A stretch of 64,000 nucleotides of DNA from Escherichia coli (GTDB taxonomy: Bacteria > Pseudomonadota > Gammaproteobacteria > Enterobacterales > Enterobacteriaceae). The stretch lies in the NCBI RefSeq assembly GCF_044647545.1, contig NZ_CP172818.1; one strand, given 5' to 3'. The notes below the pieces were generated by a model. The model was not told where the DNA came from. It was given only the letters and a program-made list of their open reading frames with translations, and made no database searches. Positions within the stretch are counted from its first letter, which is position 1. Each line of letters begins with the position of its first letter. This document shows positions 24,129 through 47,430 of this stretch, piece by piece. The position numbers and the translations under genes were made by a program.

Positions 24129-25412
24129 TTACAGACTTCTTGAAGGTTGCGCTGCTGTTACAACACGCGGTTGATCTTCCGCGGCATCTTCCAGTGCACT
24201 TAAATCACGGTCTTTCACTTCTGGCATTTTCAGCGCAGAGATTAAACCAATCACTGAATATGCCATGATCATAATGGCGATCGGATACCAGGATTCCGTC
24301 ATGGTGCAGAAAATACCCGCCAGGATAGGACCAAAACCGGAAGCGATAAGACCACCAATTTCTTTAGAAATAGCCATCCGGGTAAAGCGGTTTTTACAGC
24401 CGAACATTTCTGCCATGGTAATGTTTTCCAGAGCAAATAATCCCAGCACCGCACAGTTATGAATCACAATCAGTGCAACCATAATGGTGCTCGGGGCATA
24501 GCTTTTATCTACGATGATAGAAAGCATTGGCCACGCCAGCACAATCGCAGAGGTATTCATAATAATATACGGGATCCGGCGACCTATTTTATCGGATAAC
24601 CAACCAAGGAACGGAATGGTCATAAAGCCGAGAATCGAACTGATCATCAATGCATCTGTTGGAATTGCTTTGTTAAACAATAACGTCTGCACTAAATAGC
24701 CTGCAAGGAAAGTCTGAATTAAACCTGAGTTACCAGCCTGACCAAAACGCAGCCCTGTTGCCAGCCAGAAGGATTTGCTCTGGAACATGCTACCAGCAGG
24801 TGCAGGTTTTGCTGTCGGTTGATTGCTGTCGTTAACCTTCTCAAAGACCGGGCTTTCTTTCAGATTCATACGCAACCAGATAGCAAAGACCATCACGACA
24901 ACGCTCGCCAGGAACGGTATACGCCATCCCCACGCCAACAGTTCCTCTTTACTGAGAATGAAGAACATAAAGGCCCAGATTGCCGTTGCGCTCAAGGTTC
25001 CGCAGTTAGTCCCCATAGCAACAAATGAGGAGATAATTCCGCGCTTACCTTTTGGCGCATATTCCGCCAGCATCGTACCGGCACCGGAAATTTCCGCACC
25101 TGCACCCAATCCCTGAATAATACGCAGCGTCACCAGCAAGATGGGTGCAAAAACACCAATCTGTGCATAGGTCGGTAACACACCAATTAAGGTGGTACAG
25201 ATCCCCATCATGGTGATGGTAATAAAGAGTACTTTTTTACGCCCTATTCTGTCGCCCATTTTGCCGAAAATAAATGCTCCGACAATACGCGCCACATAAC
25301 CTGCACCGTAGGTTCCCATTGCCAGAATTAACGCCATTGCCGTTGATGATTCAGGAAAAAATATTTCATGAAACACTAACGCTGCGCCGAGCGAATATAA
25401 CTGGAAATCCAT
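24129..25412 (-). CDS. ydfJ: MFS transporter YdfJ, N-terminally truncated by prophage insertion (427-aa remainder)
   Basis: ORF starts at MDFQLYSLGAALVF, inside the first TM region; the missing N-terminus (MTIEKHERSTKDLVKAAVSGWLGTALEFMDF) lies at 46250-46342 on the far side of the prophage. Confidence 0.85.
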   Translation of the reverse strand: MDFQLYSLGAALVFHEIFFPESSTAMALILAMGTYGAGYVARIVGAFIFGKMGDRIGRKKVLFITITMMGICTTLIGVLPTYAQIGVFAPILLVTLRIIQGLGAGAEISGAGTMLAEYAPKGKRGIISSFVAMGTNCGTLSATAIWAFMFFILSKEELLAWGWRIPFLASVVVMVFAIWLRMNLKESPVFEKVNDSNQPTAKPAPAGSMFQSKSFWLATGLRFGQAGNSGLIQTFLAGYLVQTLLFNKAIPTDALMISSILGFMTIPFLGWLSDKIGRRIPYIIMNTSAIVLAWPMLSIIVDKSYAPSTIMVALIVIHNCAVLGLFALENITMAEMFGCKNRFTRMAISKEIGGLIASGFGPILAGIFCTMTESWYPIAIMIMAYSVIGLISALKMPEVKDRDLSALEDAAEDQPRVVTAAQPSRSL

Positions 25413-25416
25413 AATT
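25403..25416. repeat. attL core copy
   Basis: gaaatccataattc; 11 identical bases plus TTC shared with the right-end copy. Confidence 0.6.
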
Positions 25417-26198
25417 CACAGGTGTTTTTTCCCATCCTGTGGTTTCCTTGGCGTTTTCTAGGTTTTTTCAGATAGTTGCATTTTTTAAAAAGCATCCTAA
25501 GTTCGATCTCAGTGTCTATCTGGGGCCTATTTCTGTCCCATATATGCCCCAAAAAAAACTCCCCAACAGATAAGTAGTTTTTTCATGGATTTATGCGTAA
25601 AATCAAGAACGGCTGGAAATCATTCAATACTCACACTATCGAAAAATTTACCAGCCAACCGCAGCACGTTCTTGCATAAGGCGTGTCTGCGGTTTTTCAA
25701 CTATTCAGATACATCACTCCCATCACATTCATTCCTCCGCATCAAAGGCATATAGGCTATATCACCTTGATATTTTTCTTTTTCAGATAAAAACTGTTAT
25801 CTATGTATACTTTTAAACCCAATCCGTGTAGAGTCTCTGCATAAGATAGTTTACAGTTGCCGCTTCAGCTTGCGCCATAAACCGCCTGATTTTTGCTGCC
25901 ACCTGTTAGCATTCCTGTATACCTGAAACGACAATGTTTATCTACGAACTTTAAGAACACCCAAGATAAAAATTGTCAACTATATCATATATAACACATT
26001 ACTAATTCGAGGCTATATGAACAGCATACTGATAATCACATCTCTCCTTATCATATTCAGCATTTTTAGTCATGCCCTAATAAAATTAGGGATTGGCATA
26101 TCCAATAACCCAGACAAAACCGATGTATAAGTCAACATATCCTGAATCAGACATACAATATCGCAATGAAAATCAATAATATTTTAAGGAATATCTTC

Positions 26199-26432
26199 AT
26201 GAAATCAAAAGACACCCTAAAGTGGTTCCCTGCGCAGCTTCCTGAAGTAAGAATTATCCTAGGGGATGCTGTAGTGGAAGTAGCAAAACAGGGAAGACCT
26301 ATCAATACCAGAACATTGCTTGATTACATTGAAGGAAACATAAAGAAAAAATCATGGCTGGATAACAAAGAATTATTACAAACAGCGATATCAGTTCTTA
26401 AAGACAACCAAAATTTAAATGGTAAAATGTAA
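26199..26432 (+). CDS. ydfK: Qin prophage protein YdfK, 77 aa
   Basis: MKSKDTLKWFPAQLPEVRIILGDAVVEVAKQGRP... Confidence 0.8.
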   Translation: MKSKDTLKWFPAQLPEVRIILGDAVVEVAKQGRPINTRTLLDYIEGNIKKKSWLDNKELLQTAISVLKDNQNLNGKM

Positions 26433-26748
26433 TATAATAAACTTACTTTTTTATCATTTTTCCACTTTAACAACATTTTGCTCCACTTTTCCACGACCAA
26501 ACAACTTGAAATCTGGTTAAAATAACACGCAACACTATTCTTCTTCCTTGAGTCCGCCCGGAACTCGAAAAACAAACCGAGTTAAAGCCTTTTTTCACAA
26601 AATCGATTTTGGGTCTCACCAAAATTACGGGGTTGCATACGCATTCGTTTATTTTCGAACGTGTACATACAAATATGCACAAAAATAATCATAATTATTT
26701 TCTGAGATGCATTATGATATGAACACCAATTTCGTATAGAGTCTCACT

Positions 26749-27339
26749 ATGTCTCGAATTTTTGCTTACTGTCGGATATCAACGCTGGATCAGACCACCG
26801 AAAATCAACGCCGGGAAATCGAAAGTGCAGGTTTTAAAATCAAACCTCAGCAAATAATCGAAGAACACATTAGCGGCTCAGCAGCAACCAGTGAGCGTCC
26901 TGGTTTTAACCGGTTGCTTGCTCGCCTGAAATGTGGTGATCAATTGATTGTGACAAAACTGGATCGCCTTGGTTGTAATGCAATGGATATCAGGAAAACA
27001 GTGGAACAACTGACCGAAACAGGTATCAGAGTGCATTGCTTAGCATTGGGTGGCATTGACCTGACCAGTCCAACAGGAAAAATGATGATGCAAGTAATTT
27101 CAGCAGTCGCTGAATTTGAACGAGACCTTTTACTTGAACGCACTCATTCCGGGATAGTAAGAGCCCGCGGCGCAGGGAAACGTTTTGGTCGACCACCTGT
27201 GTTAAATGAAGAACAGAAACAGGTGGTATTCGAACGAATTAAGTCAGGTGTAAGTATAAGTGCCATTGCCCGGGAATTCAAAACCTCGCGGCAAACCATT
27301 TTAAGAGCCAAAGCAAAACTTCAGACACCTGACATATAA
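26749..27339 (+). CDS. pinQ: serine DNA invertase PinQ (Hin/Gin/Pin family), 196 aa
   Basis: N-terminal resolvase catalytic region ([17 protein letters not shown]) and C-terminal HTH. Confidence 0.95.
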
Positions 27340-27436
27340 AAAATAATCTCGGTGTGAGATGCTTTACGTCTTCCAAGCCCCCTTCCTTGCCGTAAATGGA
27401 AAGATACATCTAATTATAGAATTTATATGTTTTACC

Positions 27437-28011
27437 CTACGGCAGTGCTGGCCATTCAATATCCTGTGCAGTTGACGTATCAACACGGTTCAGCAATACC
27501 CGATACTTTTTCCATGCTTCCAGCAACGGGGTTTCTTCCTCCGTTGCAATTTCCAGATCTGCAGCATCCTGAAGCGGCGCAATATGCTCACTGGCTACCT
27601 GCATCAGGTTGTTTTTTTTTCTTCCGCTTCCCGTATCCGAAACAGTTTTTCTGCTTCCTCATCATTCACCCAGGATACGCCGTCCCACTTCTGATACTCC
27701 CCTGCTGGCGACAACCAGGTGACATTCTCTGGTAGCGGTCCGAGTTCAGAAATAAACAATGCGTCCCCCGACGCCACGTCATAGACCGTTTTACCACGAT
27801 GGTCTTCAACAATATTCCACGATTCATTTTCACTGTTAAAAACTGCCACAAAGCCAGCAGGAATTTCCGGTGGGGCGATATCTGTAGAATTAGCTGGCAG
27901 CCCTGTATGAGGTGGAATATATGCGTCACCTTCACCAATAAACTCATTAGTTCCGGCCAGCAGGTTATAAATTTTTACGGTACGTGATTGTTCACTCATT
28001 CTGAATGCCAT
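27437..28011 (-). pseudogene. tfaQ: tail fibre assembly protein TfaQ, frameshifted at a 9-nt homopolymer (27612-27620)
   Basis: N-terminal frame stops after ...EAEEKKTT at 27604; the C-terminal part ([22 protein letters not shown]...DIEWPALP*) continues in another frame to a stop at 27437-27439. Confidence 0.7.
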
Positions 28012-28934
28012 TATGCAAGCCTCACAATATAATTAAATGCGATGTTTTTAACGGTGTTTTCCGCGTTACCAGCAGCGTTAACGGTGATGGTGTGTCCATG
28101 TGAACCAATCTTAACAGAGTGCGTATGAGCGCCAATACCAACAGTGTGTGCATGTGCCCCAGCACTTGTAGCGGTACCTGATACTGAGTGGGTATGTGCG
28201 CCAGAAGAAGGCACAGTTCCATTCCCCACCACCGTGCCACTTGATGAACCATCCAGCCAGTCGAAATTCATACCGCCACTGTTTGGTCTCCTTAATGGAA
28301 CGGTATGAGTATGTGCGCCAGCACTATTTGCAGTACCAGATACATTGTGGGTATGTGCACCTGTGTTATTCGTTGATTTAGTACCGTAATCAAACGACGA
28401 TGTGGTTTTCGTACCCAAATCCGTACTGGATGCGCTGGCACTGTGGGTGTGCGATTTAATGCCATCCTGTTCCTGAGACAATACGGCCCGACCACTGGCG
28501 GGTTTGCCCTTGATTGTCCAGCCGCGCATATCTGGAATAACACCAGAAGGATAGGCAATAGCCAGTTTCGGATATGCTGCCTTATCAAACGTCTGCCCCT
28601 GCATGATTGCATAACCTGCAGGTGGCGTATCTGATGGCCACGGGATTGGTGCACCGACTGGATAAAACTCTGCAGGAGGATGAGCCGAGGTGTAAAGCTG
28701 CGCCCACGGCGACCAGTTTGCGTCGGTCGTATCCCGTCGTGAACGAATAAATGCCGGAGCATGAGCACCGCTTGTACCACTCCAGCCGATGAGTAACTCA
28801 CCTTCGCCAACGGCTGTCATCCCTTTCAGGTGAATGATATTTCCATACGCTGTTGGATATCCGTTGTTATACACCTCGTATAACTCAAGACCTGCTGCCC
28901 CCTGCGTATTGTCTGTCAGCGCGGTTATATTCAC
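28011..28934 (-). CDS. stfQ: side tail fibre protein fragment StfQ (YdfN); Gly/His-rich repeats
   Basis: 307-aa ORF with repeated [11 protein letters not shown]-type units; stop overlaps tfaQ start (TAATG); the 5' end overlaps nohQ so the true start is uncertain. Confidence 0.65.
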
Positions 28935-29454
28935 TCAGCAACCCCGGTATCAGTTCATCCAGCGCGGCTGCTTTGTTCATGGCTTTGATAATATCCCGTT
29001 TCAGGAAATCAACATGTCGGTTTTCCAGTTCCGGAAAACGCCGCTGCACCGACAGGGGGAGCCCGTCGAGAATACTGGCAATTTCACCTGCGATCCGCGA
29101 CAACACGAAAGTACAGAATGCGGTTTCCACCACTTCAGCGGAGTCTCTGGCATTCTTCAGTTCCTGTGCGTCGGCCTGCGCACGCGTAAGTCGATGGCGT
29201 TCGTACTCAATAGTTCCTGGCTGGAGATCTGCCTCGCTGGCCTGCCGCAGTTCTTCAACCTCCCGGCGCAGCTTTTCGTTCTCAATTTCAGCATCCCTTT
29301 CGGCATACCATTTTATGACGGCGGCAGAGTCATAAAGCACCTCATTACCCTTGCCACCGCCTCGCAGAACGGGCATTCCCTGTTCCTGCCAGTTCTGAAT
29401 GGTACGGATACTCGCACCGAAAATGTCAGCCAGCTGCTTTTTGTTGACTTCCAT
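28885..29454 (-). CDS. nohQ: terminase small-subunit (Nu1) homologue NohQ, 189 aa with altered C-terminus
   Basis: [46 protein letters not shown]... as in lambda Nu1; C-terminal residues diverge, consistent with a deletion junction. Confidence 0.85.
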
Positions 29455-29630
29455 TGTTCATTCCACGGACAAAAACAGAGAAAGGAAACGACAGAGGCCA
29501 AAAAGCTCGCTTTCAGCACCTGTCGTTTCCTTTCTTTCAGAGGGTATTTTAAATAAAAACATTAAGTTATGACGAAGAAGAACGGAAACGCCTTAAACCG
29601 GAAATTTTTCATAAATAGCGAAAACCCGCG

Positions 29631-29642
29631 AGGTCGCCGCCC
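29631..29642. other. cosN cohesive-end site, within a lambda-like cos region (about 29455-29700)
   Basis: aggtcgccgccc is the reverse complement of lambda cosN GGGCGGCGACCT; flanks match my recollection of the lambda left end (cosB) and right end (cosQ side). Confidence 0.75.
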
Positions 29643-29841
29643 CGTAACCTGTCGGATCGCCGGAAAGGACCCGCAAAATGATAATAATTATCATCTGCAT
29701 GTCACAACGTGCATCTACGCCATCAAACCACGTCAAATAATCAATTATGACGCAGGTATCATATTAATTGATCTGCATCAACTTAACGTAAAAACAACTT
29801 CAGACAATACAAATCAGCGACACTAAATACGGGACAACCTC

Positions 29842-30075
29842 ATGTCAACGAAGAACAGAACCCGCAGAACAACAATCCGCAACATCCGCTTTCCTAACCA
29901 AATGATTGAACAAATTAACATCGCTCTTGATCAAAAAGGGTCCGGGAATTTCTCAGCCTGGGTCATTGAAGCCTGCCGCCGGAGACTGTGCTCAGAAAAA
30001 AGAGTTTCTCCTGAAGCAAACAAAGAAAAGAGTGACATTACTGAATTGCTCAGAAAACAGATCAGACCAGATTGA
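29842..30075 (+). CDS. ynfO: Qin prophage protein YnfO, 77 aa
   Basis: 77-aa ORF MSTKNRTRRTTIRNIRFPNQMIEQ... Confidence 0.75.
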   Translation: MSTKNRTRRTTIRNIRFPNQMIEQINIALDQKGSGNFSAWVIEACRRRLCSEKRVSPEANKEKSDITELLRKQIRPD

Positions 30076-30131
30076 AGCAATTTAGATAATCGTGCAGACT
30101 ACGCCCCTCATATCACATGGAAGGTACCACA

Positions 30132-30542
30132 ATGGCTCAGGTTGCCATTTTTAAACAAATATTCGATAAAGTGCGAAATAATTTAAACTATCACTGGTTT
30201 TATTCTGAACTAAAACGTCACAATGTCTCACATTACATTTACTATTTAGCTACAGAGAATATTCATCTTGTTCTTGAAAACGATAATACGGTTTTAATAA
30301 AAGGACAGGGTAAGGTTGTAAATGTAAGATTTTCAAAAAATAAATGCCTTATAGAAGCCACCTTAAAAGGATTCAAATCAGGAGAGTTATCATTTTACGA
30401 ATACAGGAAAAATCTTGCTACAGCAGGGGTTTTCAGATGGATTACAAATATCCACGAAAACAAAAGGTATTACTATACCTTTGATAATTCATTACTCTTT
30501 ACTGAGAACATTCAGAACACTACACAAATATTTCCGCACTAA
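30132..30542 (+). CDS. ydfO: Qin prophage protein YdfO, 136 aa
   Basis: Start at [13 protein letters not shown]... Confidence 0.8.
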
Positions 30543-30731
30543 ATCATAACGTCCGGTTTCTCTCACTCCTGAGCCGGACTGCATTGGTTTAATAAAAACC
30601 ATCGACAATCGAGATTTATATCTATTCGGTAATGTTTAAATATAACAAAACCCCGTAAAAACGAGGTTTATGGGTAATTTGTATTGTTGAATAGCATCTG
30701 ATGAGAAATTGATGCTAATACTATAAACATG

Positions 30732-30905
30732 CTAGATTAAATCAATCTTGATATCATAGCTTTCAAGACCAGTCATTTTTTCCCGTGCAGTAAACTGGAT
30801 ACTGGTAACTTCTTTCCCGGTCTTTTTCTTAAGCTCAATGATTTTTTTTGTTATATATTCAGAAATATCTGCTTCTGTTTTTGTTTTTAACTCTTCAATG
30901 TTCAT
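30732..30905 (-). CDS. gnsB: GnsB (GnsA/GnsB family), 57 aa
   Basis: MNIEELKTKTEADISEYITKKIIELKKKTGKEVTSIQFTAREKMTGLESYDIKIDLI. Confidence 0.85.
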   Translation of the reverse strand: MNIEELKTKTEADISEYITKKIIELKKKTGKEVTSIQFTAREKMTGLESYDIKIDLI

Positions 30906-31077
30906 CATTTCCTCTTTTAGTCTGTTATGACTGTCCTGGTACACAGTAGTGTCAATTATATGGAGCAAACGTATAAAAGATAAGATGAAACATCGCAATA
31001 ATCAACATACGACGGTCTAAATTTCACACAAACAGATAAAGATGATTATCATTTATTATCAATGCATTAGAATCAAA

Positions 31078-31308
31078 TCAATTCAAGAGTCTCATTGCTG
31101 CTTCCAGAATTTCTTCTGAAGTTACATGTCGATCCGCTGCTACATAAATGACTTTATGATCTCCGGTCAGAGATGGAAACCCTGCAGCCATTACAGTGAG
31201 GTGTGTTGTTTCGCCATTTGGATATTCACGCATGATGGTGTTAACTCCGGTCATCACTGGCACTACCATTGCTGGTTCAGAGTTAAAAAAAACTATTATT
31301 TTTTTCAT
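31078..31308 (-). CDS. ynfN: Qin prophage small protein YnfN; start uncertain
   Basis: 89-aa ORF; several in-frame Met candidates (MKKIIVFF..., MREYPNG...). Confidence 0.5.
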   Translation of the reverse strand: MKKIIVFFNSEPAMVVPVMTGVNTIMREYPNGETTHLTVMAAGFPSLTGDHKVIYVAADRHVTSEEILEAAMRLLN

Positions 31309-31579
31309 AATGTTACCGTAATATGTGAGTATCCATCGACTAGACACTAAGCAAAAAAGCTCCCGAAGGAGCCTTCATTTTCACTTTCTTAAATCTAACG
31401 ACAGATGGCTAACATTTAAGTATTGTGAAATATTATCAAATGTAATCATCATTGATTTACAAAAGATACATTTTGCCCCGAAAGGATTTCTGTCAGAAAC
31501 ATCAAAAGATGATGTTCTATACTGAGAACCATGGCAACACGGGCATCTAAAGTGAATATGGTTTGTAATATTTTCTACC

Positions 31580-31792
31580 TCAAAGTGCCACTACATGAAC
31601 AGCTGCAGGGCCTTTAGGTCCGTTCTCAATACCAAATTCGACTTCCTGATTCTCAGTTAACGTTTTGAAATCGTTGCTCTGAATAGCTGAGAAATGCACA
31701 AACACATCTTTGCTACCATCTTTCGGCGTGATGAAACCAAAACCTTTTTCAGGGTTAAACCATTTCACTAAACCAGTCATTTTGTTAGACAT
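31580..31792 (-). CDS. cspI: cold-shock protein CspI, 70 aa
   Basis: [38 protein letters not shown]...; long AT-rich upstream leader. Confidence 0.9.
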
Positions 31793-32156
31793 CATTATTA
31801 CCTTTTGAAGAAGTTAGCCCTTGGGCAGAATGGTCCGAAAAAAAAATATCAGAGAGAAAAACCAACAAGGAAATCTCAAGAGGTACAAATAATAAAATTA
31901 TAACAATGACTGCTTCAGATAATTTTGTAACAAACCAGAACACCATTAACGCATGATTAACCAACCATAGCAAGGATTACTTTTGTAAAGAAAAACACAC
32001 GAATGAAACAATAGCTTTATTTATTAATAAAACGTGTCATTCTGTCTAATGACCTTTTATCTTACCCTTAAGATTTCAAGGATTTTGACTCATGGAAGAG
32101 TCCTTTTTATTTAAATTTCACATTCAGCGCTAAAAATAATCCGATTTAATATTAAT

Positions 32157-33180
<1,024 letters not shown>

Positions 33181-33184
<4 letters not shown>

Positions 33185-33492
33185 AGATATTTATGATGAG
33201 GACGCTCGTGCTTATTGGCAGGATTTTCAATCTTAAAGGAGTACTGATGCTGCAGATAAGACTCAACTTTTTCTGACAATTTTTCTGCTACTTCCAGGAA
33301 GACTTGCCGGACGCTCATTCTGGCTGCTGCCTCATAAAACTCCAGCGCAGCTCCTTCAACACGGTCCATGGCGACATCCAGGCCAAAAATTTCACCGTCA
33401 AAGCGTTCTTTGTCCTGTAAGGCTACAGTTACCGTAACTTTATTCTCAAAATTACGGACTCCTTTCACAACCAGTTCATAGTATTGAGTCAT
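33181..33492 (-). CDS. ydfR: Qin prophage protein YdfR, 103 aa
   Basis: 103-aa ORF between holin and endolysin. Confidence 0.75.
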
Positions 33493-33496
33493 TGGA

Positions 33497-33712
33497 TTAC
33501 TCTCCTCTCGCAGCCTTACGCCTGTCTTCTTTAATCTTGAAATAAAGATTTGTCAGGTACGTCAGCAGGCCAAATACCAGGCTACCCAGCACACCTATTG
33601 CTGCCCACTGTGAGGGCGTGACTTTATCGAGCAGCTGTAAAAACCAGTAGCCAGCACTGCCTGCGGAGGTGCCGTAGGCAATGCCTGTTGAAATTTTGTC
33701 CATGGATTTCAT
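33497..33712 (-). CDS. essQ: holin EssQ, 71 aa
   Basis: [31 protein letters not shown]... with TM segments and charged C-terminus. Confidence 0.8.
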
Positions 33713-33932
33713 AGCCTCACCTCCGCACGGAACGGATGGTGCAATATGTTTGAAAAGATCGGAGTCTACGGGGTAGTTTTGACAGCACACGTTGTTCTCA
33801 ACGGCGCTAAAAAAACATACACATTAAAAATGTGGGTAATTATTTTGAAAGAAAGTCATATATAAAATAATAATACGAGAAATGTTTTCATATTTAGTGT
33901 ACTGTATACGGCCATTTATACAGGAAAAGCCT

Positions 33933-34103
33933 ATGTCAGAACGTAAAAACTCAAAATCACGCCGTAATTATCTCGTTAAATGTTCCTGCCCAAACTGCAC
34001 CCAAGAGTCAGAACACAGTTTTTCAAGAGTACAAAAAGGTGCCCTTTTGATCTGCCCTCATTGCAACAAAGTATTCCAGACAAATCTTAAAGCTGTAGCC
34101 TGA
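33933..34103 (+). CDS. 56-aa zinc-ribbon small protein (two CxxC pairs); possibly the ribosome-profiling-identified small protein of this region
   Basis: AGGAAAA RBS 6 nt upstream of ATG; MSERKNSKSRRNYLVKCSCPNCTQESEHSFSRVQKGALLICPHCNKVFQTNLKAVA; hairpin downstream. Confidence 0.45.
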   Translation: MSERKNSKSRRNYLVKCSCPNCTQESEHSFSRVQKGALLICPHCNKVFQTNLKAVA

Positions 34104-34466
34104 TTGATTTTATTAGTAACAAGTATTTTTTATATTTTAATAATATATTTAAAGCAGATAATAAAAAACCCGCCTGAGCGGGTTTGAGATTGTGGTGCTT
34201 TTTGTGGGAGTCATCCACTTACGCACTTTGTTTTGCCATGCCAGCAGTTAGCTTCTGCTGTAAAACTATTCATGCAGCAAACCTGCACTTCACCACAATG
34301 GTTAGCATACTTTTCCTGATTAAGATTTTGCCAAATATGCTAGCCATTGTTTCATGTATTGGACCTCCTTACTTTTTATTAAAGAGATCCAATATTCACT
34401 ACTCTGTCCGTATCTCTACTCAGGCATCAGCCTTCTTCGTTATCGTATACAGACGAGCGATGAATT

Positions 34467-34682
34467 TTAATCAGTAATGATGACATTTGCTGCTGCAGGA
34501 CCTTTAGCACCACTCTCTATAGAGAAGGTAACCTTTTGACCTTCAAATAAGGTTCGATAATTATCATTCTGAATCGCAGAAAAATGCACAAACACATCTT
34601 TACTACCATCAACAGGAGAAATAAAGCCGAAACCTTTATCAGCGTTAAACCATTTTACTAAACCAGTCATTTTATTTGACAT
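34467..34682 (-). CDS. cspB: cold-shock protein CspB, 71 aa
   Basis: [38 protein letters not shown]... Confidence 0.9.
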
Positions 34683-34982
34683 TCTACATTCCTTAACTTG
34701 AGCCTTTCGGCATAAATGGTTTGCATAACAGAAACGACTTCGTACTTAATTGGAGAGACTCAAAGAAGGAATAAGTGAATAACACCTGAAATGAGAACTG
34801 CTTTAGTAAACTACTTCGTATATCGTCTGTTCTTCAAACCGACGCAATCATTAACGCATAGTTGAACATATGAAGCAATGTTTATTTTAGACATCCAGCC
34901 ATCTTCAACCCCATCAAAAAACTATAGCTTTCTTCAGGAACGTGTGTATAGTGCGCCAAGTTATCAGTATTAAGGAATTTTT

Positions 34983-35195
34983 TTGTCCCGTAAAATGACA
35001 GGAATTGTCAAAACCTTTGACGGCAAAAGCGGCAAGGGTCTTATCACCCCATCCGATGGTCGTATCGATGTCCAGCTTCATGTTTCAGCGCTCAATCTCC
35101 GCGATGCAGAAGAAATTACCACCGGATTACGCGTGGAATTTTGCCGGATAAATGGTCTGCGTGGCCCTTCAGCTGCCAATGTTTACCTTTCATGA
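34983..35195 (+). CDS. cspF: cold-shock-like protein CspF, 70 aa (TTG start as reported by the ORF track)
   Basis: [37 protein letters not shown]...; divergent from cspB. Confidence 0.85.
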
Positions 35196-35616
35196 GCTAT
35201 ATTAAAGCTTTAATTTCAGGCCCCATCGGATCACACATGGAGAGTTTTTATGAATAACCCCGTCTGTCTTGATGACTGGTTGATTGGCTTTAAAAGCTTA
35301 TGCTGTACTTTGGCCGTAATAGCTCTGCTAATAATATAATAAGCAGACTCATTGTGTTTAGGGACATTGTACTGGAAGAAAACATTTTAAACATCAGGCA
35401 AATAACCAAGTCACCAGCTAAATAATAAGTTAACAGACATGAGTCCCGGGATGAGATTCAACATTACCATTGCCCCATTTAAAGCACAAAACCCGCTCAT
35501 CAGCGGGTTTTCTACTTTTTCTTAACGTCGGGTATACAAAGCCCATCGTTAGGAGAATCCTAACCAAATTTTTTGAAAAATGCAAGAATCATGTCGCCAT
35601 CTTCGGCGAAAATCAT

Positions 35617-36369
35617 TTATCTCGTCACTTTTCTTAATTGCGCCTCAGCATATGCTTCTTCCTGCCAGCACTTTGTCACCAGTTTATCAATGACATCTGC
35701 ATATCCTTTGTACCACTGATAATCCGTCAGGTCTGGTACCAGCTTCTGGACATGATGCCGCGCCAGTGTGGTTGGTAAACGGCTAAACCGATTTCCATTG
35801 CAACGCCCACAAATCTTATAAACAGGCGTGCCATGAAGCCGGGTCCTTTTTTCATCCAGGACAATACCTTTACCCTTACACCCTCTGCACGCTGTGCTGA
35901 CTTCTCCCTTACCATGACAATGCTGACATAGTTCCTTCACCCACTCTTCCTTGATAACAGATTCCCCGCTTCTGGAGTGTTTCACCACTTCGCGCAATAC
36001 ATTATGAAATCCAGTACCAGCACAATGCTCACAGCGAGCCTTACTTGCCGCAGACCTGGAATAATCAGCAAAGGCAAAATTCACAAGGTAAGGGATGATC
36101 TGTAACCGGGTTTCTTCACTCAATTTGTTCAATGTCGGGTTATCCAGTGCCATCGCGTAATTGAGCAGACCTTCAATCGCAAATTGAGGATCCTGAACAC
36201 CAACTTTTGCCAGGAATAAGGCAAACCCAAGCGGTGCTTTCGACTGCACCATCCCCTGCGCAGCCATCACATCCGTAATCGTTAAACCACCTGAGCCTGT
36301 CGCCGGTGCGTCATCGCTCAATTTTGGAGATTTTGGGGAGTAATATTTTGGTAAGGCTTCAAGGTTCAT
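35617..36369 (-). CDS. quuQ: late-gene antiterminator Q homologue QuuQ, 250 aa
   Basis: 250-aa ORF with Cys-rich zinc-binding region upstream of the lysis cassette. Confidence 0.85.
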   Translation of the reverse strand: MNLEALPKYYSPKSPKLSDDAPATGSGGLTITDVMAAQGMVQSKAPLGFALFLAKVGVQDPQFAIEGLLNYAMALDNPTLNKLSEETRLQIIPYLVNFAFADYSRSAASKARCEHCAGTGFHNVLREVVKHSRSGESVIKEEWVKELCQHCHGKGEVSTACRGCKGKGIVLDEKRTRLHGTPVYKICGRCNGNRFSRLPTTLARHHVQKLVPDLTDYQWYKGYADVIDKLVTKCWQEEAYAEAQLRKVTR

Positions 36370-36564
36370 GCTCGTTCTCCACTTACGCCAGTACGCCTAT
36401 TGCCAGCGCACGATCGATAAAACGAAATATCAGCTCCAGCTGGGAACCATACATCTCTTCAAATGCCACGGTATCCGCATGCAGCTCGTCGTGATGCTTT
36501 CTGCACAAAGGCAACACGAAGAGGTCATGCGCTTTTGTACCCATTCCACCCTGACCGTGGCCTA

Positions 36565-37470
36565 TCAGGTGATGGGGATCATCGGCAGGCTTACCACAAC
36601 ACGCACACGGCTGTGTCTTAACCCAGCGCGTGTACTTCTCATTAACCCAGCGGCGACGTTTAGGCGCTTCATAAAAGATTCCGGCGACTCTGGATCAACG
36701 GCAATGCTGACCACCGTCTTTTCCTGTGGTGGGTTCTGTTGCTGGTGGGCGTGAGGCAGCGGCGCAAGATTTTTTGTGCGCTGTTTCAGTATGCTGGTGG
36801 CGGTCTGCTCTCCCGGTACGATGTCGCTTTCGCGGTACACCGAGCAGATTTTTTCCGCTGGTAATCCCAGCGAACGACGCGATACAGCCTCAGGTAGTGC
36901 ATCCACCACCTGATTGCAGACCGCCCACCAGGATAATTCAGCCAAAGATAATTCCCGCTCCTGCGTACCGCTTATTGCGTGACGGATGACGTCAATCACC
37001 CATGCTGTCAGATTTTGTTGAGCAAGCAGCTCCAGTGATTCCGATGTCTGGTCACGCAGTTGGTTGTCGCAGTGCCAACACAACACCATTGCGCCGGTAC
37101 CATAACGGTGAATGACTGTTTCAGTGTGATGGTAATCTCCATTAGGCCACTGGCAGGATGTAACATGACGTAATAGCCAGTCAGACAATGCGCCAACGCC
37201 GCCAGCAGCACGAATCACCCGTTCGTTACTAAAAAACGGCAGCAATGTTTTGTCTTCCGCCAGCGGCTGGCCAACGGCAGGAACGACTCCGGATGGCAGA
37301 TTACGCATGCTTTTTGGTTCCGGTTCCACCAGCACTCGAGGATTATGAAATATCTGTATGGATTCACGGCCCGGCTTAAGGACCACCAGCCCAAGCTCAG
37401 GCACCAGAACAGGTCTAAGTAATACCCGCACGTTACCTCCAGATCCGTTGCTGGAAAGTGCGGGACGCAC
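36565..37470 (-). CDS. ydfU: DUF968-type prophage protein YdfU (301-aa frame, GTG start per ORF track)
   Basis: Long minus-strand ORF; its 5' end overlaps the adjacent 92-aa ORF by 38 bp in a different frame. Confidence 0.7.
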   Translation of the reverse strand: MRPALSSNGSGGNVRVLLRPVLVPELGLVVLKPGRESIQIFHNPRVLVEPEPKSMRNLPSGVVPAVGQPLAEDKTLLPFFSNERVIRAAGGVGALSDWLLRHVTSCQWPNGDYHHTETVIHRYGTGAMVLCWHCDNQLRDQTSESLELLAQQNLTAWVIDVIRHAISGTQERELSLAELSWWAVCNQVVDALPEAVSRRSLGLPAEKICSVYRESDIVPGEQTATSILKQRTKNLAPLPHAHQQQNPPQEKTVVSIAVDPESPESFMKRLNVAAGLMRSTRAGLRHSRVRVVVSLPMIPIT

Positions 37471-37711
37471 GTGGTGGGCGTTCGGAGTAAGGCAATCTGA
37501 CTGAGATTATCCAGTGACGGTAGTCGAGACTAAGGGCTTTCTTAACCTCGTATCCGCGCCTGCGGTAACACTGAATTATCCATTCAGCCTGCTCTTCAGT
37601 GCATGGAGGGTGTTGGAACCATTCAGACTTGAATGCGTGAGAATACCGCTCGTGCGTGCAGGCAAGAACGGGCGAATTATCAGAATTGTAATATTTTACG
37701 TTGCGTGCCAT
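37433..37711 (-). CDS. 92-aa Cys-containing prophage ORF upstream of ydfU (separate gene or frameshifted N-terminus of ydfU)
   Basis: MARNVKYYNSDNSPVLACTHERYSHAFKSEWFQHPPCTEEQAEWIIQCYRRRGYEVKK... Confidence 0.45.
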   Translation of the reverse strand: MARNVKYYNSDNSPVLACTHERYSHAFKSEWFQHPPCTEEQAEWIIQCYRRRGYEVKKALSLDYRHWIISVRLPYSERPPRASRTFQQRIWR

Positions 37712-37777
37712 CGGTTTTCTCCGGTGGCACGGTGTTACTCAGCGGGAGTTCAGCCCCGCGCAAGATTGTAGATGAGT

Positions 37778-38029
37778 TTATTCTTCTGCAAAAGCTGAAA
37801 AGCCTGCTTTTATTCCGATCTCTTTCAGTGCCTGTAATGAAGTGACAAACTCACCTTCGCGCAAGATAAATCCGTCTGTCACTCGACCATCCACAAAATT
37901 AATTAACGCAGCCCCATTCTTTCGCAAACACATAATGCGGTAATGACTAACAAGATTTCCATTTTCAACGCACACCGCATAGAGGCCATCTTCACAAAAA
38001 ATTTTACGCAGTTCTTCGATGTTCATCAT
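37778..38029 (-). CDS. rem: Rem, Qin prophage protein, 83 aa
   Basis: 83-aa ORF MMNIEELRKIFCEDGLYAVCVENGNLVSHYRIMCL... Confidence 0.75.
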   Translation of the reverse strand: MMNIEELRKIFCEDGLYAVCVENGNLVSHYRIMCLRKNGAALINFVDGRVTDGFILREGEFVTSLQALKEIGIKAGFSAFAEE

Positions 38030-38245
38030 CAGAATCCTTCCGGATAATTAGCTCTCCCCTTTAAGGGACCATCCCTCTTATCCCTGCGCGCTACTTAAGT
38101 ATTTTTGATTCTATTCCGGCACCGTCCAGAACTTCAAACGCGTTGAAAATAAAAACAAAAACCCGCCGAAGCGGGTTAAGTGCGGGTGCGTTGAGGATGC
38201 CTGCCACATCAGAGGTGGCGAGGGATTTCTCCCTCGCCGGGTCTC

Positions 38246-38401
38246 TTACTCCTCAGGTTCGTAAGCTGTGAAGACAGCGACCTCCGTCTGCCCGGTTCGG
38301 ATTCGTACCTCGCAGAGGTCTTTCCTCGTTACCAGTGCCGTCACTATGACGGTTAAACAGATGACGATCAGGGCGATTAACATCGCCTTTTGCTGCTTCA
38401 T
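38246..38401 (-). CDS. hokD: Hok-family membrane toxin HokD (RelF), 51 aa
   Basis: Minus strand encodes MKQQKAMLIALIVICLTVIVTALVTRKDLCEVRIRTGQTEVAVFTAYEPEE. Confidence 0.85.
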   Translation of the reverse strand: MKQQKAMLIALIVICLTVIVTALVTRKDLCEVRIRTGQTEVAVFTAYEPEE

Positions 38402-38472
38402 AGCCTGCTTCTCCTGTCAACGCAAAGCAGAAGTGTCACCTTCGGTGCGAAACAGAGATGTCATGCTTTGGT

Positions 38473-38760
38473 TCAGAGAATGCGTTTGACCGCCTCGCTA
38501 TATACTTCCGAGCGTTCTCTTTTCCCAACAGAAATCACGAAAACGACAACTTTCTCGTCTATAACCTGGTATACAAGGCGATAGCCTGAAGACCGGAGCT
38601 TAATCTTGTAACAATCAGGCATACCACGGAGCTTGTTTGCTTCAATCCGGGGTGACTCAAGTACTTCAACCAGCTTCTTTTTCAACTGTTCACGTACCGT
38701 CGAGCCCAGCTTTCGCCATTCCTTTAGTGCCCGCTCGTCAAAATCCAGAAAATACGCCAT
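38473..38760 (-). CDS. relE: mRNA interferase toxin RelE, 95 aa
   Basis: MAYFLDFDERALKEWRKLGSTVREQLKKKLVEVLESPRIEANKLRG... Confidence 0.95.
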   Translation of the reverse strand: MAYFLDFDERALKEWRKLGSTVREQLKKKLVEVLESPRIEANKLRGMPDCYKIKLRSSGYRLVYQVIDEKVVVFVISVGKRERSEVYSEAVKRIL

Positions 38761-38999
38761 CAGAGTTCATCCAGCGTCACACGTACTGGCTTAGGATTAC
38801 GAAGCCGTTCTTTCACTATCTCCACAAGTTCAGCATCTTCATCACTCAGGAGTGTCTGTTTGAACGGCAAGCGTTCATTGTCAGCGATATACTCGAGCAT
38901 GAGACGAAGCGCTTCAGAAGGAGTTACACCCATTTTTTCAAGCGCGGCGTAAGAACGCGCTTTAAGTTCATCGTCAATACGCAGGTTAATGCTACCCAT
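38760..38999 (-). CDS. relB: antitoxin RelB, 79 aa
   Basis: MGSINLRIDDELKARSYAALEKMGVTPSEALRLML...; stop overlaps relE start. Confidence 0.95.
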   Translation of the reverse strand: MGSINLRIDDELKARSYAALEKMGVTPSEALRLMLEYIADNERLPFKQTLLSDEDAELVEIVKERLRNPKPVRVTLDEL

Positions 39000-39023
39000 G
39001 TCTTACACCTCTTGTAATTACAA

Positions 39024-39329
39024 ATGTCATTACAAGTATCGCACTACAACATGCTTAGGGCAAGTCACGAAGGAAGTCAGAAAGTAGTCGTAAGAACGGT
39101 GATCACTGTCCGCTTTGTGCCAGGAGCAGCCATTGCTAAGTCCATCCTGTATTGTGCAGGTCAGCTCGTTTTTAAAGAGTCCGGCCATCATCTTACTGGT
39201 ACAGACACCATATACTTTGTGACGGTCAGGCTACATATGCACAACTCAACTTATTCATCTATTTTTTGCTTTAGCATGTCAGTGTTGCTTTCTCGTCGGC
39301 GGGTGAGCGGTGACCTGACCTGTCGATAA
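39024..39329 (+). CDS. ydfV: Qin prophage protein YdfV, 101 aa
   Basis: 101-aa ORF; weak coding signal. Confidence 0.6.
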   Translation: MSLQVSHYNMLRASHEGSQKVVVRTVITVRFVPGAAIAKSILYCAGQLVFKESGHHLTGTDTIYFVTVRLHMHNSTYSSIFCFSMSVLLSRRRVSGDLTCR

Positions 39330-39531
39330 AGGAACGTAACACGTTTTATGCAACACCCGCATGCGGCAGAAAATTATTGCCGAACGTTTACCCCTGTCAA
39401 CAAGCTTTACTTTCTGAGGCGCGCCAGCCCGCGAGGAAAACAATCTGAACATCAAACAATTAATGACACAAGAAATACGATTAAAGATTTTTTTGTGCAT
39501 GCCGATAGTGCTTTTTTAAAAGGAGAAATCT

Positions 39532-39864
39532 ATGTCTGTCACAATTCAGGGAAATACCTCAACCGTTATTTCAAACAACTCCGCCCCGGAAGGAACATCA
39601 GAAATAGCCAAAATCACAAGACAAATTCAGGTGCTGACTGAAAAGCTTGGGAAAATCTCATCGGAAGAGGGGATGACGACACAGCAGAAAAAAGAAATGG
39701 CTGCATTGGTACAGAAGCAAATTGAAAGCCTCTGGGCTCAACTGGAGCAGTTGTTAAGGCAGCAGGCAGAGAAAAAGAATGAAGACGCGACAGTTCAGCC
39801 TGATAAAAAAGAAGAGAAAAAAGACGATACAAATACCGCTGGCACCATTGATATTTACGTCTAA
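39532..39864 (+). CDS. flxA: FlxA (flagellar-regulon sigma-28-dependent protein), 110 aa
   Basis: 110-aa Lys/Glu-rich ORF; GGAG RBS; terminator follows. Confidence 0.85.
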   Translation: MSVTIQGNTSTVISNNSAPEGTSEIAKITRQIQVLTEKLGKISSEEGMTTQQKKEMAALVQKQIESLWAQLEQLLRQQAEKKNEDATVQPDKKEEKKDDTNTAGTIDIYV

Positions 39865-39877
39865 GTGACAGCCGTAT

Positions 39878-39902
39878 TGTGGCCCTCATCGGGCCACTTT
39901 TC
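39878..39902 (+). terminator. rho-independent terminator after flxA
   Basis: gtggccctcatcgggccac hairpin followed by ttttc. Confidence 0.6.
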
Positions 39903-40248
39903 GCCATCAGCCTTTTCTTTAAAGACATATTATCTTTGTATCATTTCTGATAGTTAACATTACAAGATATAAGTAATGGACGCACTCCCAATTAGTCTAT
40001 TTAAATCGCCACGAGTTTAACTGACAACCCATGATCAATTATGAATTGCAACTATTTCTGTAGTCACTTTTGTGGGGACAGTCCACAAAACTGCCAACTT
40101 CCGCTTCTTGCTCTTAGCGGACATTAGCATAGGCTATTTACCATAACGCCTCATTACGCGCACCGCCCAGACTGACTCAGCGCGTTTCTGGCATATCCCC
40201 GGTAAAACAAGTAACAAACCACCCGAAAATGAACACCAGAAACGCGAC

Positions 40249-40476
40249 TTAAGAATCTACCCTATGAATGGATATGCACTCAACCGAATCGATCTTGGTT
40301 TCAATCTTTTTTATCGGGATCAGGCTTCTTTTTAGGTAACTTCGGGGGCTTAACTTGCTGATGACTTTGCGTTCGGCGCGTAAGCCAGGGATGGTCAGCT
40401 TTAGGTTTAACATAGTATTTTGAGCGTAAATCAATACGGGCATTATCCACTCGTTCATGGACACTCTTTTCATCAT
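40249..40476 (-). pseudogene. ydfW: integrase-like fragment YdfW (IntK remnant)
   Basis: 75-aa ORF with weak similarity to the C-terminal end of tyrosine recombinases; far too short to be functional. Confidence 0.55.
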
Positions 40477-40763
40477 CCAGTGGTAGCCTCCATAATTGCA
40501 GGCACTAGCGCCGTGAACTTTTCACGCTTATCCCTAGTGTCGATAGCCTTCCAGCGTTCGAATATCTTCACTCGATTAACGCCAAGCGCTCGCTGATCAA
40601 CCGCGCCACCTTCATCTGTGACACGCTGAACATCGATGTTCGGGCGCTCTTTCAAAGCCCAGAATGCTTCAGTGATTAATATCGTCGCCTGCTCCTGTGT
40701 CATTCCTGGTCGACATATCCAGGCATCCAGAGCCTCACGAGCCTGTTCAGGAGTGATTTTCAT
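40473..40763 (-). CDS. ydfX: Qin prophage protein YdfX, 96 aa
   Basis: 96-aa ORF overlapping dicC stop. Confidence 0.7.
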   Translation of the reverse strand: MKITPEQAREALDAWICRPGMTQEQATILITEAFWALKERPNIDVQRVTDEGGAVDQRALGVNRVKIFERWKAIDTRDKREKFTALVPAIMEATTG

Positions 40764-40974
40764 TGTTCAACCGCCCCGCCCGCTTCGTCTTACGATATTC
40801 GTCATAAACCTTGGGATCATACAGAAGCTCGCCGCCAGATGCCTCCTGTAGACGCATCGCGCGACCTTCAGGAACCAGCTCTTGCCATTGAGAAACAGCA
40901 GATGGGTCAACGCCAGCAGCTTTCGCTACTTTGGCTTTCGTACCGTAAAAATTAATTACGTCTGATTTAAACAT
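40747..40974 (-). CDS. dicC: Cro-like repressor DicC
   Basis: Small ORF divergent from dicA; C-terminal ...LQEASGGELLYDPKVYDEYRKTKRAGRLNNENHS. Confidence 0.8.
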   Translation of the reverse strand: MFKSDVINFYGTKAKVAKAAGVDPSAVSQWQELVPEGRAMRLQEASGGELLYDPKVYDEYRKTKRAGRLNNENHS

Positions 40975-41049
40975 CGCACCTCCAATATTGGTTTTCTCAA
41001 TGCTAATCACTCAAGAATCTCAAGTCAAGGGTTATTAAGATATCTAAAT

Positions 41050-41457
41050 ATGAACGAGAAAACTTTAGGTCAACGCATTAGAGAAAGACGTAAGCAGGTA
41101 GGCTTAAGTCAAAACGGTTTAAGCAAAGCTGCTGGCGTATCTGGCTCATCAATTTCATTATGGGAAAGTGACCATACAGCCCCGCGCGGGCAAAATTTGC
41201 ATCGCCTCGCCGAGGTATTGCAATGTTCACCAACCTGGATACTGTTTGGCGACGAGGACAAAACACCAGCTCCCCCTGTTTCACTCGATAGTGCCTTAGA
41301 CTTATCGGAAGATGAGTTAGAGATGCTGCGTTTGTATCGCGCACTTCCTAAATCAGAGCAACAAGCACAACTCAGCGAACTCCGCGCCCGCGTTGAGAAT
41401 TTTAATCGCCTGTTCACCGAGCTATTAGAGGCTCGCAAACGCTACAAGCATCAATAA
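41050..41457 (+). CDS. dicA: HTH-XRE repressor DicA, 135 aa
   Basis: MNEKTLGQRIRERRKQVGLSQNGLSKAAGVSGSSISLWES... Confidence 0.9.
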   Translation: MNEKTLGQRIRERRKQVGLSQNGLSKAAGVSGSSISLWESDHTAPRGQNLHRLAEVLQCSPTWILFGDEDKTPAPPVSLDSALDLSEDELEMLRLYRALPKSEQQAQLSELRARVENFNRLFTELLEARKRYKHQ

Positions 41458-41649
41458 TCATCCCTTCACAAAATTTTAAAGCCTTACATTTCAATGTATT
41501 GGCTTTATCTTGCGCCAATACTTGAGTTTTCTCATCAAAAAACCTTGACGAAAAATAATGAGAAAACTAAATTACTTCCATCAAGACACCGCACGGTGTT
41601 CTCAGCAAACAGTTCCGCTACCCCGGCGTTAAGGGGAAATGAGGTCAGC

Positions 41650-41802
41650 ATGGATACTATCGATCTTGGCAACAGCGAATCTCTGGTATGTGGCGTGTTC
41701 CCCAACCAGGACGGTACGTTCACCGCGATGACATATACCAAAAGCAAAACGTTTAAAACCGAATCTGGCGCGCGTTGCTGGTTAGCCAGAAACACTGACT
41801 GA
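41650..41802 (+). CDS. ydfA: YdfA, 50 aa
   Basis: MDTIDLGNSESLVCGVFPNQDGTFTAMTYTKSKTFKTESGARCWLARNTD. Confidence 0.75.
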   Translation: MDTIDLGNSESLVCGVFPNQDGTFTAMTYTKSKTFKTESGARCWLARNTD

Positions 41803-41813
41803 TGAGGCTGACG

Positions 41814-42179
41814 ATGGAATTTAAAGATTTACCGTCTGATGTACAGAAAACAGCAGCTCATACATTGCATTCTGTGCTGCGAGAAATCGGGAAAGATATT
41901 GCAAGCGAGCCAGCAAAAGATCTGGCCCGGAAAATCAAGACCGCTTTCGTTGAGCTTTATAATGTTGGCACTGACTCTGAAACTGTCGAGACCAAGACCG
42001 TAAGTTCACCAATATTCTCACTTGAGCCAGGCGTATTATCAGGTGAAATATGCACCGAGATTTCCAGCGAACTGCTTCCGGTAATACGAGAAGCAATTTG
42101 CCGTCGCGGTTTGGATGGAAGTTACGATCATGACGTCCTGCAAGTTCTCAGGACAATGGTGACTTCACTGGGGATTTGA
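41814..42179 (+). CDS. single 121-aa ORF covering the region I recall as two small genes (ydfB and ydfC) in K-12
   Basis: GAGG RBS then ATG (MEFKDLPSDVQKTAAHTLHSVLREIG...); uninterrupted frame to 42179. Confidence 0.55.
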   Translation: MEFKDLPSDVQKTAAHTLHSVLREIGKDIASEPAKDLARKIKTAFVELYNVGTDSETVETKTVSSPIFSLEPGVLSGEICTEISSELLPVIREAICRRGLDGSYDHDVLQVLRTMVTSLGI

Positions 42180-42621
42180 TCCCTGCGTCCTCTAACCTTT
42201 TGATATAGCGGTCCTCCAAGAAGCGGTAAATTTTGTCGAAATCATCTTTCCCCTCTGTTTATTCAGAGGATTACAGGACCCGTAAGTAGCGGCATACATT
42301 TCAACCGTTTTATCAAAAATATAAGAGACAAATTCTTCTTTAGTCATATAGATTTCCTTCAATGGGTTATTCGGAAAGAAGGATACCACTTCGCCTGACG
42401 TGTTAAAAGCAGGCATACAACACGAAAGCGCACGGCGAAGTTCGTCTCACTGTACGGTGTCGTTAAATTTAATTCGACCGTGCGCTTCCGGTTGTGGCAA
42501 CCCGCGAAATGGCGCGGCGGTAAGTATGGCGGGGTTATTCCTTCCCCGTTGAGGACACCGAGTTGTCAGGTTGACCATACGCTTAAGTGACAACCCCGCT
42601 GCAACGCCCTCTGTTATCAAT

Positions 42622-42679
42622 TTTCTGGTGACGTTTGGCGGTATCAGTTTTACTCCGTGACTGCTCTGCCGCCCTTTTT
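42622..42679 (+). ncRNA. dicF: DicF sRNA (53 nt) plus its terminator U-tail
   Basis: tttctggtgacgtttggcggtatcagttttactccgtgactgctctgccgccc followed by ttttt. Confidence 0.8.
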
Positions 42680-42848
42680 AAAGTGAATTTTGTGATGCGG
42701 TGAATGCGGCTGAGCGCACGCGGAACAGTTAAAACCAAAAACAGTGTTATGGGTGGATTCTCTGTATCCGGCGTTAATTGTTAACTGGTTAACGTCACCT
42801 GGAGGCACCAGGCACCGCATCACAAAATTCATTGTTGAGGACGCGATA

Positions 42849-43037
42849 ATGGAAACGTTATTACCAAACGTTAATACGTCTGAAGGTTGTTTTGAAATTG
42901 GTGTCACTATCAGTAACCCTGTATTTACTGAAGATGCCATTAACAAGAGAAAACACGAACGGAAGCTATTAAATAAAATATGCATTCTTTCAATGTTGGC
43001 CCGTTTACGTCCGATACAAAAAGGATGCTGGCAATGA
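42849..43037 (+). CDS. dicB: cell-division inhibitor DicB, 62 aa
   Basis: METLLPNVNTSEGCFEIGVTISNPVFTEDAINKRK... Confidence 0.9.
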   Translation: METLLPNVNTSEGCFEIGVTISNPVFTEDAINKRKHERKLLNKICILSMLARLRPIQKGCWQ

Positions 43038-43225
43038 ATACAGCATTTGCACTTGTTCTGACAGTTTTTCTTGTTTCCGGAGAGCCAGTTGATATTGCAG
43101 TCAGTGTTCACAGGACAATGCAGGAGTGTGTGACTGCAGCAACCGAACAGAAAATTCCCGGTAACTGTTACCCGGTCGATAAAGTTATTCACCAGGATAA
43201 TAACGAAATCCCGGCAGGTCTTTAA
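43034..43225 (+). CDS. ydfD: YdfD, 63 aa small membrane (lysis-associated) protein
   Basis: MNTAFALVLTVFLVSGEPVDIAVSVHRTMQEC...; ATGA overlap with dicB stop. Confidence 0.8.
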   Translation: MNTAFALVLTVFLVSGEPVDIAVSVHRTMQECVTAATEQKIPGNCYPVDKVIHQDNNEIPAGL

Positions 43226-43317
43226 AACAGTTCCGTAATAAACATCCGATTTCATTCTTATATGCCAGCAATGGCAGGGATTTGTTCACCCTTAAATCTG
43301 TAATGAGGTAAAACAAA

Positions 43318-44256: not shown

Positions 44257-44917
<661 letters not shown>

Positions 44918-46212: not shown

Positions 46213-46213
46213 T

Positions 46214-47419: not shown

Positions 47420-47430
47420 TATCTTACTCC

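Follow-up and report, generated by a model that had tools for sequence, protein, structure and literature searches.

The split tail-fibre-assembly gene found in this Escherichia coli record is, with a probability that we put at about 85%, a consensus or join artefact of a reference-templated assembly and not a mutation. The window, meaning here the whole 64,000-nt stretch of DNA that was analysed, belongs to a record of 4,499,902 bp and, judged by its pattern of identities, has the appearance of a consensus built on a K-12 template from an ST648-like isolate. The gene in question is pieced together from chromosomal, K-12 and phage-plasmid sequence, it loses its reading frame within a dozen nucleotides of a point where two of these sources meet, and it is most likely not a genuine tfaQ of this strain. 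Below we describe the gene and its tract, the mosaic that it forms part of, the way in which such a sequence could have come about, and the other explanations that have to be weighed.

In place of one uninterrupted ORF of about 191 aa, the window holds a gene of 575 nt that is split into ORFs of 135 and 55 aa, the second lying in the -1 frame relative to the first (Table 1). The longer ORF ends in ...EAEEKKTT followed by TGA, and the ATG that opens the shorter one overlaps this stop codon by a single base (TGATG). Their products match consecutive parts of the 131-position Pfam profile Caudo_TAP (PF02413), positions 1-73 with E = 6.9e-10 in the 135-aa ORF and positions 76-130 with E = 3.4e-25 in the 55-aa ORF, and are therefore halves of one gene and not a chance pair. 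The exact products of both ORFs are on record for one single contig. A preliminary description of this DNA had placed the end of the first ORF after ...EAEEKKTT at 27604, beside a T9 run at 27612-27620, and had the C-terminal part of the protein run on in another frame to 27437; the sequence is as described in the first respect, and the 55-aa ORF with its profile match bears out the second. The same description took the gene for a tail-fibre-assembly gene, tfaQ, split by a single-base frameshift, and a 1-nt shift relative to the reference tfaQ is indeed what is found, in a locus of the order pinQ-tfaQ-stfQ'-nohA. The gene is placed as a Tfa-type gene would be, with a tail-fibre gene immediately upstream and a Pin-type invertase for a neighbour, and this invertase, together with the truncated fibre ORF, the Nu1/NohA homologue and a truncated ydfJ gene, marks the locus as Qin-type. 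The stfQ'-like ORF is a chimera too, of plasmid type as far as 28626 and of K-12 type from 28644 on. Elsewhere in the region, ynfN has an A8 run at 31285-31292 in the window and in ECONIH1 and an A7 run in K-12; the gene is annotated as frameshifted in K-12 and as intact in ECONIH1, so that in this case it is K-12 that has the pseudogene.

Table 1. Features of the split gene, its neighbours and the source blocks of the region, in window coordinates.
Feature	Coordinates	Strand	Description
Chromosomal block	25000-27548	.	Exact match to ECONIH1 (ST648-type): ydfJ', ynfT, ydfK, pinQ and a 111-nt 3' tfa remnant
pinQ, Pin-type invertase	26749-27339	+	Pfam Resolvase and HTH_7
3' ORF of the split gene	27437-27604	-	55 aa, MQVASEH...WPALP; -1 frame relative to the 5' ORF
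K-12 block	27549-27616	.	68 nt without a difference from K-12 tfaQ; interval has no counterpart in ST648 chromosomes
5' ORF of the split tail-fibre-assembly gene	27604-28011	-	135 aa; Caudo_TAP profile positions 1-73
A9 run, the frameshift site	27612-27620	- (T9 on + strand)	Lacks the C of K-12 GAAGAAA[C]AAAAAAC
Phage-plasmid block	27620-28626	.	About 1 kb matching pECO-b75; spans tfa (5' part) and the tail-fibre gene (3' part)
Truncated tail-fibre ORF, stfQ'-like	28011-28934	-	307 aa; Collar and Phage_fiber domains
K-12 exact	28644-28989		
Nu1/NohA homologue	28885-29454		
K-12 peppered with SNPs	28990-30557		
ECONIH1 exact	30604-33739		
K-12 exact	33740-35550		1811 nt
K-12 peppered with SNPs	35551-36685		
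ECONIH1 exact	36702-38415		
K-12 exact	38416-40535		2120 nt
ECONIH1 with private 1-nt indels	40536-44227		

The K-12 tfaQ gene is intact (576 nt, 191 aa) and reads GAAG-AAACAAAAAA-CAACC across the tract at which the window gene, one nucleotide shorter, reads GAAG AAAAAAAAA CAACC. The A9 run thus reflects the absence of the base that interrupts the A3-C-A6 of K-12 (a G on the plus strand, at about 27616-27617). This comparison of run lengths had been proposed in the preliminary description, together with the outcome that would have told against its reading, namely a reference tfaQ with the same run and the same divided frames; the K-12 gene has neither. The BS-01 and HS-01 genomes likewise carry A3CA6, and a scan of IMG/VR for the tract within its conserved flanks returned 120 related viral loci, all except one of which have a tract of the same length as that of K-12 and in frame (A3-C-A6 in 115, and a T in place of the C in the other four). 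The remaining locus has A3CA5, and neither A9 nor A10 occurs among the 120. The notion of an indel in a homopolymer, put forward in the preliminary description, consequently finds no support, the reference having an interrupted tract here and not a homopolymer.

Elsewhere among public E. coli assemblies, too, tfaQ- and tfaR-type genes come apart at this A-rich tract, in most cases into 135 and 55 aa, and a search with the 55-aa product retrieved among them the variants A2CA6, A4CA6, A8, A3CA7 and A3CA5. Many ‘partial’ products of 54-56 aa correspond to contig ends at the tract, where thousands of short contigs stop. The tract marks the point at which a variable 5' module gives way to a 3' module common to prophages, and it is a frequent spot for assembly breaks and for differences of plus or minus one nucleotide, real or erroneous.

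Were the window gene simply a tfaQ allele, a uniform near-identity to its K-12 counterpart over the full length might be expected; what is found is a mosaic of three sources. The window matches ECONIH1 at 100% up to 27548, which is the exact end of the tfa remnant of that chromosome, and no further; the short block that follows is K-12 sequence without a single difference, and beyond it the match is to the phage-plasmid pECO-b75, exact over 27620-28110 and at 99.8% onward to 28626. The 5' part of the gene (27621-28011, 391 nt) is accordingly 100% identical to the tfa of pECO-b75 and only about 88% identical to that of K-12. In a three-way alignment of the window, pECO-b75 and K-12, scored at the sites where pECO-b75 differs from K-12, the window agrees with the plasmid at 230 of 232 informative sites between 28626 and 27628, and with K-12 from 27619 down to 27300 at all except two columns, that of the deletion and 27531. 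The switch from plasmid to K-12 allele falls inside GCGGAAGA, 3-12 nt from the missing C. Nothing among 5,426 complete E. coli genomes, 50,697 phage records and 72,556 plasmids matches the sequence across the junction (27520-27740) over its length at more than 92%. A natural parent with the same chimeric junction in frame was considered as well, and none above 92% came to light among complete E. coli genomes, phages and plasmids. Six strains (ECONIH1, EC488, 806883-9-2019, IR53017, 4973 and WP5-S18-ESBL-08) appear both among the matches to the core chromosome and among those to the phage-plasmid.

The patchwork is not confined to this gene but takes in the whole ‘Qin’ region (25000-45100). The core flank at 46000-64000 is 100.0% identical to ST648-type genomes such as ECONIH1, and that at 1-25405 is identical to ECONIH1 save at two structural-variant junctions (5159-5490, and 2 nt at 18335), the core of the window diverging from K-12 by about 2.5%. 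At the site between these flanks ECONIH1 carries a complete lambdoid prophage of 46 kb, with tfa present only as the 111-nt remnant beside pinQ. Segmentation of the window by exact identity and its painting against ECONIH1, K-12 and pECO-b75 yielded the succession of blocks listed in Table 1, in which K-12-exact blocks of 68, 1811 and 2120 nt, with zero differences, abut ECONIH1-exact blocks with no base between them. Comparison with the orthologous locus of ECONIH1 shows that these blocks fill exactly those intervals in which that locus has no homologous DNA. The two K-12 stretches peppered with SNPs (28990-30557 and 35551-36685) have the look of a template overlain by reads from paralogous prophages. 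A genetic hybrid of K-12 and an ST648 strain was also considered as the origin of the patchwork and set aside, in that recombination can neither switch at every homology boundary nor decay into poly-A.

Such decay is seen at structural junctions of the window. Over 5159-5490 the window follows the diguanylate-cyclase gene of ST648 (ECONIH1), which a deletion truncates in K-12; bases are lost progressively, G first on the plus strand, the sequence then turns into poly-A runs (A13, A28, A10, A16 and A17), and it resumes exactly at the end-point of the K-12 deletion. This decay is not biological. At 44241-44452, where ydfE of K-12 is cut by an IS2 fragment, a garbled version of the ECONIH1 exonuclease gene decays, after a like progressive loss of bases, into A34 and A9, and the sequence resumes exactly where homology to K-12 does. 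A slighter flaw of the same order is seen at 18335, the junction of a deletion of ydeJ relative to K-12, at which the window lacks 2 nt (TA) that are present in ECONIH1. To these are added private 1-nt indels at 36665, 40990, 41014, 42256, 42361-42401 and 44228, which are absent from the 5,426 complete E. coli genomes and break the frames of ydfU (at 36665), of a small hypothetical gene and of the exonuclease gene; the deletions among them mostly take out a G on the plus strand, and that in ydfU again sits at a source switch, where identity to ECONIH1 passes from divergent to exact. Measured against many mutually identical ST648 genomes, the segment 40484-44240 has eight private indel events and three substitutions, a ratio that suggests error and not divergence, and the private indels probably arose, like the one in tfaQ, as errors of the consensus. 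Repeats that short reads cannot polish were entertained as the cause of the indels at 40990-42401, a weak proposal given that the segment is single-copy in most ST648 genomes.

These features can be brought together if the window is taken for a K-12-templated consensus. The isolate would probably have carried, to judge from the identities, an ECONIH1-like full-length lambdoid prophage with its 111-nt tfa remnant and, separately, a phage-plasmid resembling pECO-b75. Positions 27437-27548 would then be the chromosomal tfa remnant of the isolate, the 68 nt that follow a piece of uncovered K-12 template left unchanged, and 27620-28626 the 5' part of K-12 tfaQ and its stfQ' overwritten by the paralogous tail-fibre alleles of the phage-plasmid. 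On aligning to K-12 tfaQ, plasmid-type sequence could open a 1-nt deletion at the C of the tract and a compensating insertion 10 nt downstream, and acceptance of the deletion alone, with the insertion and the nearby SNPs discarded, would give the window sequence and its false frameshift. The feasibility of this step was examined with simulated pECO-b75 reads of 100-250 nt, aligned locally to K-12 tfaQ under two scoring schemes. With scores of 2/-3/-5/-2 (match, mismatch, gap open, gap extend), the alignment places a 1-nt deletion opposite the C of GAAGAAA[C]AAAAAAC and an insertion 10 nt downstream; with bwa-like scores (1/-4/-6/-1), the reads are soft-clipped and no deletion is called. K-12 tfaQ from which only that C is deleted is the window sequence. 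The actual pipeline and its variant-filtering step we infer from these results: a filter of the SnpGap/IndelGap kind, which would remove SNPs close to indels and let through one indel of a cluster, is assumed, the plasmid-type SNPs that lie 3-10 nt from the deletion being absent from the window. Two further features are those to be expected of a template artefact, the alternation of sample-exact blocks with template-exact ones where the sample lacks the DNA, and the imprecise rendering of structural differences, as in the two instances of poly-A decay and the 2-nt error at 18335. Points against this reading are the outcome with bwa-like scores, the need for the assumed filter, and the fact that part of the region (40536-44227) keeps to ECONIH1 although K-12 can be aligned there only weakly, so that the procedure must have been more than a simple substitution of SNPs on a template.

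Other readings of the split gene deserve to be set against this one. It could, with a small probability, be a real chimeric pseudogene, that of a Qin-like cryptic prophage into which a patch of about 1 kb was recombined from a resident pECO-b75-like phage-plasmid, with the C deleted at or near the crossover and an A9 run that might permit leaky expression. Tail-fibre modules are exchanged among phages, the frameshift is there in a gene that is otherwise well preserved, core genes are free of frameshifting indels when set against K-12 or ECONIH1, further Qin-type genes are disrupted (for example, ydfU at 36665), and other public assemblies have variants of plus or minus one nucleotide in the same tract that likewise give 135 and 55 aa. 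Yet the crossover would have to sit in the last 8 nt of homology, and natural homologous recombination leaves precise joints; K-12-identical blocks abut ECONIH1 blocks exactly and fill the intervals that ECONIH1 lacks; the poly-A decay at two structural junctions can have no biological origin; the junction recurs in none of the genomes, phages and plasmids searched; and an excess of private indels over substitutions, such as that in 40484-44240, is atypical of natural divergence. The genuine inactivating mutation in a cryptic prophage that the preliminary description had offered as one of two possibilities is hence unlikely, faced with a three-source chimera joined no more than 12 nt from the frameshift. 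A bolder variant, in which a real chimera received the tail-fibre and chaperone 5' module of a resident phage-plasmid by an imprecise, microhomology-level join that created the A9 run, RNA polymerase slippage or a -1 shift on this run yields some full-length hybrid TfaQ, and A3CA6, lying between the variable N-terminal and the conserved 55-aa C-terminal part of Tfa proteins, switches the genes of E. coli prophages on and off by recurrent indels, we regard as very unlikely.

The second possibility, a sequencing error typical of nanopore or 454 data, fares better in one part than in the other: the sequence is indeed likely to be an artefact, but a homopolymer miscall does not fit a reference tract in which a C breaks the run, and the artefact is better described as an error of reference-guided consensus or of joining. 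Under the miscall, a true A10, in frame, would have been read as A9 by a platform such as nanopore, 454 or Ion Torrent. The window run is one base short of an in-frame A10, which would read ...EEKKNNLMQ..., the neighbouring A6 run varies to A5 or A7 in other assemblies, and several differences between the window and K-12 elsewhere are changes of run length. That these nonetheless add up to something highly improbable follows from several observations: an A10 allele was not found, K-12, BS-01 and HS-01 having A3CA6; 119 of the 120 IMG/VR loci have a 10-nt tract interrupted by C or T, with no A9 or A10; and on its 3' side the run adjoins 68 nt that do not differ from K-12, where the tract is interrupted. 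Changes of run length against K-12 elsewhere in the window are moreover intergenic or in prophage DNA and never in core coding genes, which over about 45 kb are free of frameshifting indels relative to K-12 and ECONIH1, and at the core sites 13155, 22574 and 24091 the window agrees with ECONIH1, which makes them lineage differences. Programmed recoding, lastly, would have a -1 shift at A_AAA_AAA, or RNA polymerase slippage that adds one A, produce full-length TfaQ at a set ratio to the 135-aa product. Runs of nine A or T are prone to slippage, and many bacterial genomes show selection against them (PMC1088944), and C-AAA-AAA has given 25-60% of -1 frameshifting in E. coli expression constructs (PMC1851650). 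The tract GAA GAA AAA AAA ACA does hold A_AAA_AAA in the 0 frame and continues as AAC AAC CTG ATG CAG in the -1 frame, so that a -1 shift or one added A restores a reading that matches K-12 TfaQ. The split, however, is not conserved, 119 of the 120 related IMG/VR loci being in frame, the arrangement occurs in one assembly only, the partner tail-fibre gene is a truncated remnant, and the sequence itself is probably artefactual; recoding can be almost dismissed.

The biological weight of the split is small, for even if it were real it would only add a pseudogene to a defective prophage that already has a truncated tail-fibre gene. It matters rather for the use of the record, which, probably over the whole of its 4.5 Mb, appears to mix K-12 template, ST648-like alleles and reads from paralogous mobile elements, and whose apparent pseudogenes, mosaic genes, prophage structures and low-complexity stretches should be distrusted unless checked against reads. 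The case may also serve as a warning that a paralog carried by a plasmid can leave a template gene with a false frameshift.

Comparison with known systems helps to place each of these elements. Slippage sites such as those of dnaX, IS elements and Shigella mxiE resemble the tract in having an A9 run within coding sequence, an in-phase heptamer and a frame that can be restored (PMC1088944; PMC5009743; PMC1851650), and differ from it in that the window run is unconserved among homologues and probably absent from the organism. Closer at hand are BS-01 (NZ_CP172816, 4.49 Mb) and HS-01 (NZ_CP172817, 4.51 Mb), which, like the window, have a Qin region collinear with that of K-12 and filled with non-K-12 alleles; theirs are the only records that match the window contiguously at 98% or more across the stretch stfQ'-nohA-ynfO-ydfO, and BS-01 is essentially identical to it over about 28800-30500, with the difference that in both genomes tfaQ is in frame. 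Both are RefSeq ‘complete’ genomes with many frameshifted genes and of much the same size as the 4,499,902-bp record. They may have been built in the same way as the window, though this is a guess; a literature search on the assembly method of these genomes (Sukabumi) brought up nothing relevant. As regards the gene itself, K-12 Qin tfaQ (b1546; WP_000885611.1, 191 aa; PF02413) occupies the same position, in the order ydfJ'-ynfT-ydfK-pinQ-tfaQ-stfQ'-nohA, and is nearly identical to the window over the 3' 180 nt, exactly so over 27549-27616. It differs in being one base longer, the loss of the C of AAACAAAAAA leaving the window with 135 and 55 aa, and in the 5' 391-392 nt, where the identity of about 88% gives way to an exact match elsewhere, to the phage-plasmid gene. 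That gene, the tfa of pECO-b75 (NZ_CP009861), an E. coli phage-plasmid type of about 47 kb, encodes a protein of 205 aa (WP_001523080.1) and is 100% identical to the window over 27621-28011; it is intact, and its own 3' half (...EEKKARLIQEATDN...) shares with the 3' part of the window gene an identity of only about 60-70%.
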